Shown piece by piece: positions 6,226-60,144 of a stretch of 64,000 nucleotides of DNA. The DNA lies in contig OX597817.1 of the NCBI GenBank assembly GCA_951406725.2, positions 78,182,001-78,246,000 of the forward strand, written 5' to 3'. The notes below the pieces were generated by a model. That model made no database searches, was not told where the DNA came from, and was given only the letters and a program-made list of their open reading frames with translations. This stretch comes from Octopus vulgaris. Lineage: Eukaryota. The position numbers and the translations under genes are program-made. Each line of letters opens with the position of its first letter. Position 1 is the first letter of the stretch.

Positions 6226-8437
6226 TATTGAACCGTTTTTCAATCAGTGATAACTTGCATAAAAACTTTAACCATACTAATATAGTATTCCAGAATAGTC
6301 TTCAAAATAAGGCTAAATTTATCGGATAAACACATGAACTCTAACGAATTTTAAAATTTTGAAATATCATTATTGAATTCAATGTAAATTAAAATTTGTT
6401 TTTTTTTTAATAGTTATTATAAAACACCAATTTGAGTTCAATTGCAATATGAGATGTGAAAACTTCTTTCATTTTATGAGAACTTATCACTTAGAAAATT
6501 ATTTTCTTTCCATCTCTTCTTTGTCTTATGTTATCCATATTCAGTTTTAAATTCATGAATATGATCTTCAATCAATCATATTTTAATCAATAATTGATTG
6601 ATAACTCTCAACATCATTTCAATTTGAAATAGTAAAAACTAAAACCAAAACCTGATGAGAAAAAATATCAAATTAAATATCATAGAATTTGTTATTTTGC
6701 ATCCTTTTACAGTTAAGCATTGTAATTCTTAAGAACCATACAGATATAGATATTGACTGTAAAACCATTTACTAAGTTAAAAATGCCAAACTACAATAGT
6801 CAGTTACGGTCAGTAAAAGGGAAATGCTAGTGGCAAATGTAATCTGCCGTAAATATGCTTTATAAAGATACATCTGGCATCACATGTGCTATGATTATGT
6901 AGAATGTTAATTTGTTGTAAGAAGGTTTTCTTTGTATATAAATTTTCAAATGTTTATATGTATATCTGAGACCTACATTTAGTCTGCATATTTATCATTG
7001 CTATTTATATCATGAGATATTAATAATAGTTGTTACTATCATCATCATCATCATCATCATCATCATCATGAATATTCTTGTTGTTGTCGATTTTCTTGAA
7101 ACTGTTTTATCTTCTTTTTACACTTTCATATATGTTCTTCTCAGTTGCTTTGGGATATTTCAAAACAGAGAATTCCTTTGCCTGTGTTTAACGAACAAGC
7201 ATAAAACATACATAATTTAAAATTAAAAACACAAAGGCAAAACACACATTCACACACATACAGCAATCACCATAAAATTAATACACAACATTTCATACAG
7301 GAAAAACAAACATGAGAGCAAAAGTAATGTAAAAAAAGAAATAATACAAGAAAGTAAACCAAAGAATAAAATAAAACTTAACATACAAGCCGTAAAAGAA
7401 ACAATACGACAGAAGAAAACTGTAAACGTTTATAAGCTACGTTTGTGGTTAAATAGTGCTTGTAGGAATAATGCTAACATTATTAAATCTTAAAAACATT
7501 TTGCTTAATTTTCAATATATAATCAGGAACCCTAAAGTATTCCTTTTATTTAACAGGTTTTTTCAAAAATTTTCCTTTCAAATTTCATTAAAATCTTCAG
7601 TAAAATGTATGTGTAAAAATTAAGACTACATACAGCTCTTGATTCAATGAAAACTTTTGAAACAACTTTATAACAGAAGTAGCACAAATGTAAAAATGAA
7701 AATAATACTTGAAAGGTCATAGTTAACAATGCATAGACTAATTTATATATATATATATATATATATATATATATATATATATATATATATATATAACAGT
7801 TGTAAATAAAATATCCATCAGCATGAGTGTAAGTAATGTATGCTTATGTTATATTAATTACATATGTACACATATGTATGTATGTATGTATGTATGTATC
7901 TATCTATGCATCTATCTATCTATCTATCTATCTATCTATCTATCTATCTATCTATCTATCTATCTGTCTATCTATCTATCTGTCTGTCTATCTATCTTTC
8001 TCTCTCTCTCTCTCTCTCTATATATATATATATATATATATATATATAAGTAATAGGTAGATGAAATTGAGGTACATTACTTCAGTCTACTTGATTAATA
8101 AAGGTAGAATGAGATATTTTTACCTCTTGGCTGAAACAGCTGTAAGTTATTTTCCCAATTTATATTCATGTATGTTATTTTGTAATAATTACTGATATCA
8201 TTATATATTAATATATTTTATGTCTTATATGTAAAGCATAATATGTTAAATATGTATGTATATTATTGTAATTGTCAGTTTAGTAAATAAATAAATAAGT
8301 TAACATAGTATAATGTCTAAAAGTTGATGAACCACCTATTGATCCCCTCTATTTTCTTATTGCTATATATATATATATGTGTGTGTGTGTGTGTATGTGT
8401 ATGTATATATATATATATATATATATATATATATATT

Positions 8438-9221
8438 ACAATTGAGGATAAAATCTTTAAAAGAAATTATCAGTAGTCAGCGTGAAAACCTCGTAAGAGA
8501 AAAAATCCGTAAATTCTTCCTCTTTGAAAATATTCATTTATATTATATTGAGGGTACTACTATTCGTATACCAACACGCTAAGAGGGACCAATGCAGTCA
8601 AAACTACTAAAAATAAAAAATTTACCGAATGCAAAACTTCAAAACACATCATTTTAAAAAAGAATTCAGTTACATATCACATGTGATTTCGCATTTAATG
8701 CAGAATATGCATTTCATGTTCGTCAGTGCAACAAACTCAAGAAATATAAGAAAAAACATAACATTACAAACTCGATAGCCAACCGTAGAATTCGTCGTAG
8801 CATGTACGAATGTTTATCCTTACATATCTATGAAAATGGCGGGCTTTTTTGCAATGCATTTCGGTAACAAATTGCCTAGTCAGAATAAAAATTCAGTATT
8901 GAACTATTCCGGTGAAAAATATAAATTAACAATTGAGGATAAAATCTTTAAAAGAAATTATCAGTAGTCAGCGTGAAAAACCTCGTAAGAGAAAAAATCC
9001 GTAAATTCTTCCTTTTTGAAAATATTCATTTATATTATATTGAGGGTACTACTATTCGTAGATACCAACACGCTAAGAGGGACCAATGCGGTTTTTTAAA
9101 ATGATGTGTTTTGAAGTTTTGCATTCGGTAAAATTTTGTTTATTTTTAGTAGTTTTGACCGCATTGGTCCCTCTTAGCGTGTTGGTATCTATGAATAGTA
9201 GTACCCTCAATATAAAATAAA
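8438..9221 (-). mobile_element. Non-autonomous Penelope-like/retrozyme-like cassette: 491-bp period partial tandem plus inverted copy, flanked by (TA)n
   Basis: Direct repeat 8438-8598 / 8929-9092; 9092-9221 is the reverse complement of about 8538-8661; contains the hammerhead at 8669-8732. Confidence 0.75.
8669..8732 (-). ncRNA. Type I hammerhead ribozyme motif, intact core
   Basis: Minus strand: guugca CUGACGA acaugaaaugca-uauuc-ugcauuaaaugc GAAA ucacauguga UA uguaac. Stem I is 6 bp, helix III is palindromic, and the base of stem II has an A:C mismatch. Confidence 0.8.
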
Positions 9222-9830
9222 AATAATAATATATATATATATATAAAGCAAATAAGTAACAAGGATATCAAGGTATTAATGCATTACAGCTGTTTCAGAT
9301 GGCTCTATTTAATCAATTAATGCAAGCATTATATCAATTTGAAATACACTGCCTTCCTTGGATGCATAAGACAATATAGGTTTTTAACATACAGGATACT
9401 CCATTATAATTTCTTTACCAAATTTTTCATCAGAACTAGAGAATAAAAGAATTACATTCCTGCTGCTATTAGTGTAGCAGAATGAACTTAAAGAGAAAGT
9501 ATATATATATATATATATATATATATATTATAAAATGAGATAGGGGTTGAAAATTCAACCCACCATGGGATAATATATATCCAATATACTGCTAGATAGT
9601 ATGTTTCTCCATTCTCAATTTTGTAGTATATATATATATATATATATATATATATATATATGTGTGTGTGTGTGTGTGTGTGTGTGTGTGTGTGTGTGTG
9701 TGTGTATGCATATGTGTGTGTGTATATATATATATATAAATAAAAGGGCTGCCTGGCCGCATAACCGAAAAATTAGAAATAGCAGTCAAGTATATATATA
9801 TATATATATATATATATATATATATATATA

Positions 9831-10669
9831 CAGAGGGCGGTGAATAAACTGTCCTCTAAATTAAGCGAAAATAAAAATAACACTGAGATATCATTTTAAC
9901 AGATATATCTACCAAAATTATATAAAAATATCTTGAAATACTAAAAAGTAAATTTATTCATGAAAATCGCCATTGGCTTCAACCATAGCCTCCAGATGAC
10001 TTTGGAATCTTCTGCAACTCTTCTGGACAGTTTCCTTGTCTAAGATGGTGAATGGTGCCATAATCATTGCTTTCAGTTCATCTTTGCTGTTTGAAGGAGT
10101 TTTGATAGTCTCTCGCTCAACTGTGCCCCACACATAATAATTAAGGGGGTTGCAGTCTGGAGAGTTAAGTGGCCAGATGATAGGGAGTGATGTAGTTGTA
10201 GAAATTGCCTCACAGCCTTGACTGTGTTCCACTGATTTTGTGGCATGGTGCAGAGTCTTGTTGCTAGACACAGGGCCTTCCAGCAACCACCCTCTTTACC
10301 CAGAGCAGCACTATCTCCTCCAAGCACTTGATGTAGACCTCTGTGTTGAGTGTGATGCAGTGTGAGAAGATGAATGGAGGCATAACATCACCATCACTAG
10401 TGTTCACTCTAAACACCATGATGTTGACTAGATGTTTGATTTTTATCACTCTTGGTACATGTCCTCAGATTGCACTGTCCTTATATTGACACCCAAACAC
10501 TCTGAAATGTTTGTATTGGATTTCCAGCATGACTGTCAAGCAGTACAGCATTTTGTTTCCAAATTTTTGACAGAGTGAATCATCTCATGCTACTGTTTTT
10601 CTCACAGACGGTGCCCAACGGATCCTACTATATTTAGATGACAAAATCAAAAACAAACAATGCACCCTG
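9831..10669 (-). mobile_element. Tc1/mariner DD37D (maT-like) transposon, internally deleted and frameshifted
   Basis: QQDSAPCH...WPLNSPDCNPLNYYVWG in broken frames; TA at both flanks; same family as 43772-44610. Confidence 0.9.
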
Positions 10670-10687
10670 TATGTATACATATATATA

Positions 10688-10851
10688 AATTAATCGAAAA
10701 TGAAAATAACATTGATATATCATTTTAACAGACATATTTACCGAAATTATATTAAAATATCTTGAAATACTAAAGAGTAAATTCATTTATGAAAATCGCC
10801 ATTGGCTTTAGCCCTGGCTTCCAGATGACTTTGGAATCTTCTGCAACTCTT
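10688..10851 (-). mobile_element. Second 3'-terminal fragment of the same DD37D family
   Basis: Repeats about 9860-10021 (gaaaatcgccattggctt...ccagatgactttggaatcttctgcaactct). Confidence 0.9.
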
Positions 10852-59114: not shown

Positions 59115-59510
59115 TGGTGCAGCTGATAGCGGTAGGGACGATGGTGGTAGGGGTGTTGATGTTGATGGTAGTGGTGCTAATGGTGGTGGTGGTGTTGATG
59201 TTGTTGTTGGTGATGATGTTGATGGTGGAGGTGTTGATATCAGCATTAGTGGGGGTGGAGGTGTTGATGGTGGAAGTGTTGATAGCGGTAGTGGTGGTGG
59301 AGGTGGTGGGGTTGATGGTGGGGTTGTTGATAGTAGTGGTATTGAGGTGGTGTTGATGGTGGTGGTGTTGGTGGTGTTGATGGTGGTGGCGTTGATGTTG
59401 GTAGTGTTGGTGGAGGAGTTGATGGTTGTGGTGTTGATGGTAGTAGTATTGATGTTGTTGTTGGTGGTGATGTTGATAGTGGTGATGTTGGTGGTGGCAT
59501 TGACGGTGGT
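59115..59510. repeat. GGT/GAT/GTT low-complexity tract
   Basis: Direct inspection. Confidence 0.95.
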
Positions 59511-59721
59511 GCATATACACACATGCATATAGACATATATACACACATATAGATGATATCATATATGCAACGATGCACACACCCAAATGTATGTTTGTAT
59601 ACACTTACTACATGTGTATATGCACATATGTCTACACCATACTACACACACCTTGCACCAACACACACACACACTTATATATAAATATATATATACATAT
59701 CTATATATATATATGTATCAA

Positions 59722-59921
59722 ACTTTGGGACAAGGCCAGTGATTTTGTGGGGAAGTTGATTACATTGACCCCAGTGTTCAACTGGTACTTATTTCATTGG
59801 CTCCTAATTGGATGAAAGGCAAAGTTGACATTAGCGGAATTTGAACTCGGAACGTAAAGACATGAAATGCTGCTAAGCATTTTACCCAGCATGCCAACAA
59901 TTCTGCCAAGCTCACTGCCTT
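59722..59921 (-). mobile_element. SINE family A
   Basis: gaccccagtgttcaactggtactt...ggatgaaaggcaaagttgac...ctcactgcctt. Confidence 0.9.
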
Positions 59922-60098
59922 GATAATATTAAGAATAATAATAATAATAACAACATTAATAATAATAATAATAATAATAATAATAATAATAATAATAATA
60001 ATAATAATAATAATAATAATAATTATAATAATAATAATAATAATAATAATATCCAAAAATACCTTAGGAATGAGAACCCAAGTTCGAAATTTCCCCAA

Positions 60099-60144
60099 GA
60101 CACCTGATGAAGGCTGGAGGGTGTATCAGCCAAAACGTTGTGTT
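60099..60144 (+). ncRNA. Minimal type I hammerhead motif with a G12-to-A core mutation
   Basis: gacac CUGAUGA a ggcug-gaggguguau-cagcc aAAA cg UU guguu; aacguu palindrome at helix III. Confidence 0.75.

Follow-up and report, generated by a model that had tools for sequence, protein, structure and literature searches.

Hammerhead ribozymes in the pseudo-long terminal repeats (pLTRs) of Penelope-like elements (PLEs), the targeting of (TA)n microsatellites and PLE-derived retrozymes are already in print. The pLTRs of metazoan PLEs with an endonuclease (EN+) carry variable families of type I hammerheads, mostly seen as single motifs from truncated copies and also as opposite-strand pairs 100-700 bp apart; palindromic helix III, an extra base after A9 and a variant with a U3-A8 pair have been reported there as well (Cervera and de la Pena, 2014, PMC4209133). 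The Hydra clade combines the motifs RWK, DKT and CxCX5C with a short element, a hammerhead and (TA)n insertion, and variable 5' ends with inverted 5' copies are the signature of PLE insertion (Craig et al., 2021, PMC8557442). In the Poseidon element PAc of Anolis, a minimal hammerhead lies upstream of two alternative 3' ends, the protein nicks AT-rich DNA and, downstream of the hammerhead, the RNA has two internal sites at which reverse transcription begins (Frangieh et al., 2024, PMC11167929). Metazoan retrozymes consist of tandem units of low GC that each hold a single type I hammerhead and lack an open reading frame (ORF) (Cervera and de la Pena, 2020, PMC7229834), and retrozyme units have been proposed to derive from PLE pLTRs (Li, Clavereau and Pollet, 2026, 10.64898/2026.07.22.740005). 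Octopus is not met in the accessible parts of the 2014, 2020 and 2026 texts, the last of which has a sample without a mollusc, and the main text of a 2026 repeat annotation of Octopus vulgaris (PMC13282606) contains neither 'ribozyme' nor 'hammerhead'. Here we describe ten hammerhead motifs in a 64,000-nt stretch of the O. vulgaris genome (contig OX597817.1, positions 78,182,001 to 78,246,000), referred to below as the window.

An earlier note on this DNA reported five complete and several degenerate type I hammerheads in (TA)n-embedded cassettes, next to relics of PLE reverse transcriptase (RT) and endonuclease, and proposed a radiation of non-autonomous, ribozyme-processed retroelements. This observation is confirmed in part: the link to PLEs and the many distinct type I families stand, a general non-autonomous radiation does not, and three core positions and two side claims had to be corrected. 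It is highly probable that the ten motifs are hammerheads, each located at the 3' end of a repeat family of its own, and that these families likely all spread by PLE retrotransposition, six of them coding, two of them ORF-less and tandem and two (9279 and 18503) assigned to neither group. The families are labelled by the motif positions given in the earlier note, and the coordinates of the core nucleotide C3 are listed separately (Table 1).

Each of the ten motifs retrieves its own repeat family in DNA searches of the same genome. Each motif gave between 18 and 4,080 first-look candidates, at most 40 of these were scored, and alignments of 10-30 loci each were built from loci picked by BLAST and not by structure. 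Nucleotide identity within the families extends from 97-98% (8669) down to 69-78% (18503). In all ten majority lines the core positions C3-A9, G12-A15.1 and U16.1-H17 are present in type I order, with a single fixed exception, U4C, in families 9279 and 48015. Around this common core there are ten unrelated sets of stems, as expected from the claim that the motifs represent different families, and every alignment has a palindrome as helix III in its majority line. The supposedly decayed cgcgcg of 45328 is indeed CGCGCG in its family, while the seemingly repeated cagcug is a coincidence, as the majority of family 9279 reads CGGCCG. All the features listed above for the pLTR hammerheads of metazoan EN+ PLEs recur in octopus; helix II insertions of 54-97 nt, palindromes of 6-10 nt and fixed U4C set the octopus families apart from those in the accessible text of PMC4209133.

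In the window itself, five copies have a complete core and five are mutated or partial. The motifs called full (8669-, 10870+, 43433+, 45328+ and 45901-) have every core nucleotide, and 60099+ (C3 at 60104), described as a single mutant, differs by G12A only, its family core being perfect. The degenerate CUGANGA placed at 8088 does not exist: the family core precedes GAAA by about 100 nt, and 5' truncation with inversion has removed the CUGACGA half from the window copy. Similarly, the cores of 9279- and 48015+ had been misplaced, the true sites being farther from GAAA (9361- and 47961+), where the family state is CCGANGA with C at position 4 in 14/16 (9279) and 12/16 (48015) loci. The minimum-energy fold of the window 8669 motif is the hammerhead three-way junction, and its 10-nt palindrome can close as a monomer hairpin; two-base and odd-length helix III palindromes would need a partner copy.

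The window, part of a 2.8-Gb assembly of 227 contigs, is 33% GC and rich in microsatellites. One rival explanation takes the motifs for chance matches in AT-rich, repeat-rich DNA. The strictest descriptor gives a single match (45969-), equalled in 1-3 of 200 dinucleotide shuffles, and no Rfam family reaches gathering score in the window, where the earlier note had pointed to the Rfam hammerhead models as a check. When Rfam was run by E-value, no hammerhead was found among the best 150 of 494 rows, the output being swamped by miRNA models that match microsatellites. If helix II may have one extra base at its foot, the count rises to three matches against a shuffle mean of at most 0.03, a count reached in 0/150 dinucleotide shuffles at each block size. 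A relaxed descriptor (long helix II and a helix I bulge permitted) passes 8726-, 10875+, 45333+, 45969- and an AT-rich site, 7600-, which looks random and is probably a chance match; a variant of it finds four matches in the window and none across 100 shuffles. The motif at 43439+ fails the relaxed descriptor because its G10.1-C11.1 pair is lost in the window copy, the pair being present in the majority of family 43433. Once the palindrome rule is dropped, strict palindromes occur in 4/7 descriptor matches versus 0/8 in 30 shuffles. Window matches are far above those in dinucleotide-shuffled sequence. In addition, forty evenly spaced 10-kb stretches of the genome (400 kb) hold 20 matches against a shuffle mean of 0.2, and alignments built without any structural selection still yield pairing helices and palindromes. 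Chance therefore deserves next to no credence as an explanation.

The claim that the cassettes form a non-autonomous population was not borne out, as 6 of the 10 families (10870, 43433, 45328, 48015, 60099 and 8088) run upstream into PLE RT and/or a GIY-YIG endonuclease. These six cassettes are therefore best read as 5'-truncated pLTR ends of coding PLEs of the Hydra and Poseidon types. For 10870, two of the nine other copies reach GIY-YIG, and the hammerhead lies downstream on the same strand in 22/30 loci found with its upstream endonuclease. Three loci (L349-L351) have stop-free frames of 717 aa with RT and GIY-YIG, followed by a sister motif of 10870 that is 85-86% identical to it and carries U4C. 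In L351 the order is inverted pLTR, pLTR, ORF, pLTR, the pLTRs being 99.6% identical. The frames lie at L349:2390-4540 (+) and on the minus strand of L350 and L351, with YKDD at the RT active site. Since many more copies share identical scores, the family appears young. The protein has RWK, DKT and CxCX5C, and L349 shows (TA)n insertion and a hammerhead too; judged by the motif list in the accessible text of PMC8557442, this element is a Hydra clade PLE. A Nematis-like assignment of the same ORF was dropped in the light of that list. The accessible text lists few Hydra families outside cnidarians, whereas here the clade is abundant, with 20,008 first-look candidates and stop-free frames. Pfam gave no match in the 717-aa protein nor in nine fragments from the window.

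Coding sequence lies upstream of 48015 in 7/16 loci and in the window copy, and of 43433 in 3/30 loci; walks of 1.4 kb at four loci each, made for 45328 and 9279, reached an endonuclease in one of the four for 45328 (E 5e-10). Family 8088 has RT in 2/24 walked loci (E 3e-32 and 2e-45). The coding sequence is broken or partial for 43433, 48015, 45328 and 60099. CxCX5C is also present in the endonucleases of 43433 and 45328 and DKT in family 8088, while Hydra-clade motifs were not detected in the broken copies of 48015. The RT upstream of 8088 (L487:300-1550 and L506:1-1300) passes through the thumb into AT-rich sequence with no GIY-YIG detected, and these elements are possibly an endonuclease-less derivative, or a deletion.

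The RT and endonuclease relics reported in the window are both present (Table 1). The RT relic is Neptune-like, as suggested by DKG and linker cysteines read by eye; it has no hammerhead in the window, and none of the ten motifs derives from it. Other copies of its family (L265-L270) have, in the 3' untranslated region, a U3-A8 variant hammerhead with a two-base palindrome and end in (TAA)n/(TTA)n runs; Pfam matches RT in one fragment of this family and GIY-YIG below its cut-off only.

The insertion footprint is that of PLEs. Copies differ in where they begin at the 5' side, their 3' ends mostly fall into two clusters (the tail), and an inverted copy is frequently joined to the 5' end. Inverted upstream copies were counted in 19/30 loci for 8669, 17/30 for 60099, 14/30 for 43433, 7/30 for 45901 and 6/16 for 9279, and in 3/10 for 10870, 3/30 for 45328, 1/30 for 8088 and 1/16 for 48015. 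The association with (TA)n noted earlier holds at the 3' junction in seven families, with 41-90% of the copies compared to 8% of random positions. For (TA)n/(TAA)n the counts are 27/30 (8669), 7/9 (10870), 11/15 (48015), 19/29 (8088), 17/29 (45901), 7/15 (9279) and 12/29 (43433); the value for 45328, 4/29, is unreliable, the alignment probably having passed across a TA run inside the element. Family 60099 lacks the association: its (TAA)n is part of the element and not its target, and 1/29 3' junctions is at a microsatellite. Judging from PMC11167929 and PMC8557442, the PLE protein would nick AT-rich DNA and begin reverse transcription within the RNA downstream of the hammerhead, and the alternative 3' ends of the tail would then follow from the two internal start sites described in PMC11167929. 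Reverse transcription would mostly stop early or fold back, leaving stubs of 0.1-0.8 kb that always hold the hammerhead, which would be why a scan sees 'cassettes'.

Several observations weigh against this account of the ten motifs. Of ten folded window segments, 8669 alone forms the full junction; in 10870 and 60099 helices I and II form but the core is mispaired, and the remaining segments fold otherwise. The best 40-150 candidates were scored per search, and the coding link, read from sequence, stands on one locus for 45328 and two for 8088, neither of the latter showing GIY-YIG. The longer copies of family 9279 extend upstream for 1.1 kb or more without coding sequence, a single copy has an adjacent PLE RT, which is inverted, and upstream searches with 18503 gave no PLE coding sequence. 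Among the loci collected, none was an autonomous partner with sequence in common with the 8669 unit. Finally, both the elements with intact ORFs and two of the window families carry U4C, a change that lowers hammerhead activity in vitro (PMC3088659).

Two families are organised differently. Family 8669 is an ORF-less tandem unit of 496 nt (GC 0.31, longest ORF 45 aa), very young with copies 97-98% identical, and its own tail recurs upstream of the motif in 23/30 loci, 21/30 copies spanning more than 520 nt. In family 45901 the unit is about 445-463 nt, ORF-less, with the own tail upstream in 8/30 loci. Both are low in GC, tandem and without an ORF, and each unit holds one type I hammerhead; they fit the non-LTR retrozymes of PMC7229834 and likely borrow the enzymes of coding PLEs. 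Unlike the long retrozyme arrays, they mostly occur as dispersed copies of 1-2 units with inversion, tail and a TA target. Such units would be PLE 3' ends without the ORF, with a multimeric or circular RNA as the template for copying in trans, as copies exceed one unit. A classical retrozyme array with an inverted part is present elsewhere, at L445:2307-4513, where seven identical hammerheads with helix III CCGG are spaced by about 359 nt, five in one orientation and two in the opposite one.

The proposed radiation of non-autonomous retrozymes, with RNAs processed by the hammerhead to linear or circular forms and mobilised in trans by PLE enzymes, fits 8669, 45901 and the 359-nt seven-copy array, and metazoan retrozymes do make circles (PMC7229834). 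Against it, six families continue into PLE coding sequence, and the own tail was never found upstream of the motif in 8088, 45328, 9279, 43433 and 10870; in 48015 it gave one match of 26 nt only. The radiation is refuted as a general account, for which we regard it as very improbable, and stands for two families.

Contigs from four runs that were guessed to be RNA overlap parts of 7950-11250, including transposase relics. One of them (run X2, contig 17, on window 8574-9066) is 526 nt long at a depth of 9.8 and covers the 496-nt unit of 8669 with a 30-nt end overlap; the run being merely guessed as RNA, such a contig could come equally from a circle, a tandem transcript or tandem DNA and is not evidence.

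Family 60099 ends a different kind of PLE. Its hammerhead part lies downstream in 23/30 loci of an endonuclease that is Poseidon-type by motif match only (in L443, PCxCG before a GIY-like motif, with no linker motif). The order in this element is endonuclease match, about 190 nt, a tRNA-like segment of about 75 nt, (TAA)n and hammerhead; PAc of Anolis, in contrast, is a likeness in the minimal hammerhead, the two 3' ends and the AT-rich target, not in a tRNA-like segment and (TAA)n between endonuclease and hammerhead. The segment is found in 25/30 endonuclease loci, and segment and hammerhead part together in 20/30. A search with the segment itself finds the 3' part of 60099 within 600 nt in 25/30 loci, and the three occurrences of the segment in 1.13 Mb of other loci are followed by it in 3/3. 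The A and B boxes were recognised by eye, and ARAGORN calls a tRNA, weakly, at a lowered threshold. The best local score against three Arg tRNA loci is 61, with shuffle maxima of 37-41, and the Rfam tRNA model gave no match to the segment.

Hammerhead-anchored copies of 60099 reach the segment in 19/30 loci, or 18 after one duplicate was dropped. Thirteen of the 18 begin within -7..+3 of the segment's first base, counting four whose start reads -17 or -20 due to an inverted copy, three begin inside it and two beyond; under a constant-stop model such clustering has p of about 1e-19. Initiation by RNA polymerase III (Pol III) would explain these starts, and so would an RT stop or fold-back at the palindrome there. 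Conservation of the A and B boxes among the genomic copies (0.92 and 0.94 vs 0.94 for the rest of the head) is uninformative, because copies decay after insertion. Short and coding copies differ at few columns, one of them a likely query bias, and three of four short copies checked have no TTTT between the head and the 3' end, which is compatible with Pol III and not proof of it.

Reading 60099 as a stand-alone tRNA short interspersed element (SINE) was dropped, as the head lies inside coding copies. Tentatively, and at a little short of an even chance, we suggest that a coding Poseidon-type PLE has incorporated a tRNA-derived promoter for Pol III within its pLTR, just upstream of the hammerhead, giving a PLE-moved SINE shared with its autonomous partner. 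One locus would then yield a long coding RNA and a Pol III RNA of about 0.3 kb made of the tRNA-like head, (UAA)n, hammerhead and tail. The short RNA would be inserted by the RT-endonuclease of the element itself, so that a SINE would arise inside a PLE and be moved by it rather than by a LINE. The Schistosoma repeats SM-alpha and Sj-alpha are Pol III, SINE-like and have a Pol III-type promoter before a hammerhead (PMC6765202), and Helenus miniature retrotransposons with terminal repeats (TRIMs), which are non-autonomous LTR elements, have a tRNA-like segment within the terminal repeat (Kojima, 2024, PMC10886601). Unlike in both of these, the segment of 60099 sits in the 3' end of a coding PLE, and its short form inserts with PLE marks. 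A literature search, with Repbase/Dfam and subscription journals outside it, returned no report of a PLE with such a tRNA-like module.

Whether the hammerheads cleave concerns the processing step. The conservation of the core across the families argues for cleavage in vivo, as a prediction, and the presence of U4C in intact elements for slow or assisted cleavage. A rival to this step, though not to the PLE origin, is that the fold persists as a passenger or as a landmark at which the PLE protein binds or initiates, with a negligible rate of cleavage. U4C in the intact 717-aa elements and in the two window families speaks for it, as does the anole PLE, whose hammerhead is dispensable for insertion in vitro: catalytic mutants inserted normally, and no reads started or ended at the cut site (PMC11167929). 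Yet the anole motif does cleave when the protein is present, and only then (PMC11167929), the other core positions are identical in ten families with unrelated helices, and the Neptune-like family has a compensated U3-A8 pair. Core constancy together with this compensation argues for selection on catalytic geometry, and we consider the landmark or passenger explanation rather unlikely. With cleavage retained, the hammerhead would probably trim tandem or read-through transcripts at a low rate, assisted by protein or by a second copy with which it pairs via its palindromic helix III.

Table 1. Hammerhead families and the PLE RT relic in the window. Helix III is the majority sequence of the family; for 9279 and 45328 the family sequence is the one given.
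Feature	Position	Strand	Copy in the window	Core landmarks	Helix III
8088	8048..8363	+	5'-truncated; inverted 5' piece 8048-8075; 3' end adjoins (TA)n	remnant is the 3' half of the hammerhead: GAAA 8133-8136, UH 8143-8144	CAGCUG
8669	8437..9245	-	direct part ~9092-8437 (more than one unit) and inverted 5' copy ~9092-9245	intact hammerhead: C3 8726, GAAA 8690-8687, predicted cut after 8675	UCACAUGUGA
9279	9250..9500	-	decayed copy with (TA)n runs on both sides	core at 9361 (family CCGAGGA), GAAA 9296-9293	CGGCCG (family)
10870	10852..10966	+	3' stub of Hydra-type EN+ PLE; neighbours: Tc1/mariner end 10700-10851, second repeat 10967-11080	C3 10875, GAAA 10913-10916, predicted cut after 10925	CUCAGAG
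18503	18490..18600	+	old, decayed minimal hammerhead; 18 matches at 69-78%	position 3 is U at 18503, GAAA 18523-18526	CG
PLE RT-thumb relic	36916..38243	-	broken, Neptune-like; ends before endonuclease and pLTR
43433	43433..43510	+	3' stub of EN+ PLE	C3 43439, GAAA 43478-43481	CCAUUGG
45328	44925..45675	+	inverted 5' copy ~44925-45065; direct 3' end ~45066-45675 against (TA)n	C3 45333, helix II region 78 nt, GAAA 45418-45421	CGCGCG (family)
45901	45766..46074	-	part of ORF-less tandem unit (older retrozyme)	C3 45969, GAAA 45920-45917, predicted cut after 45909	CCUAGG
48015	47388..48106	+	5'-truncated EN+ PLE; starts in GIY-YIG C-terminus 47388-47553 (+); 3' end at (TA)n	core CCGAUGA at 47961, GAAA 48045-48048, 17-nt helix I deletion	CAAUUG
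60099	59936..60216	+	3' end of Poseidon-type PLE, truncated inside its own (TAA)n; tRNA-like segment missing here	C3 60104, G12A	CG

The window holds other repeats as well. The Tc1/mariner end beside 10870 was retrieved by the first family search and is unrelated to the hammerhead motif. Further stretches (9872-10851, 19020-19353, 44144-44425, 48566-49303 and 62938-63318) we take, from their motifs, to be Tc1/mariner-like transposase relics and ends; Pfam gave no match among the transposase-relic fragments of the window that were submitted to it. The second repeat next to 10870 is the end of a distinct AT-rich repeat of high copy number; its inverted 5' copies and (TA)n junctions are a PLE-like footprint. 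A short frame at 52936-53076 (-) resembles a PLE RT motif by eye and was unmatched by any seed used.

The earlier note suggested that the density of these families may not have been described; the window is typical of the genome in this respect. In the genome sample the 20 matches fall into 13 loci, seven of them within the single 359-nt tandem array, and 2.0 Mb of loci collected, which the searches enriched, hold 166 descriptor matches in 28 sequence clusters. Thirteen independent loci per 400 kb extrapolate to roughly 50,000-150,000 such loci with a descriptor-passing hammerhead in 2.8 Gb. The known pattern of hammerheads in PLEs is hereby extended to the octopus genome, with its scale shown. 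The stop-free Hydra-type ORFs with U4C, the young 496-nt retrozyme predicted to fold as a monomer and the PLE with an internal tRNA-like module are test material for the role of the hammerhead in PLEs. If the tRNA-like module works as a Pol III promoter, it would show one way in which PLEs give rise to SINE-like elements.

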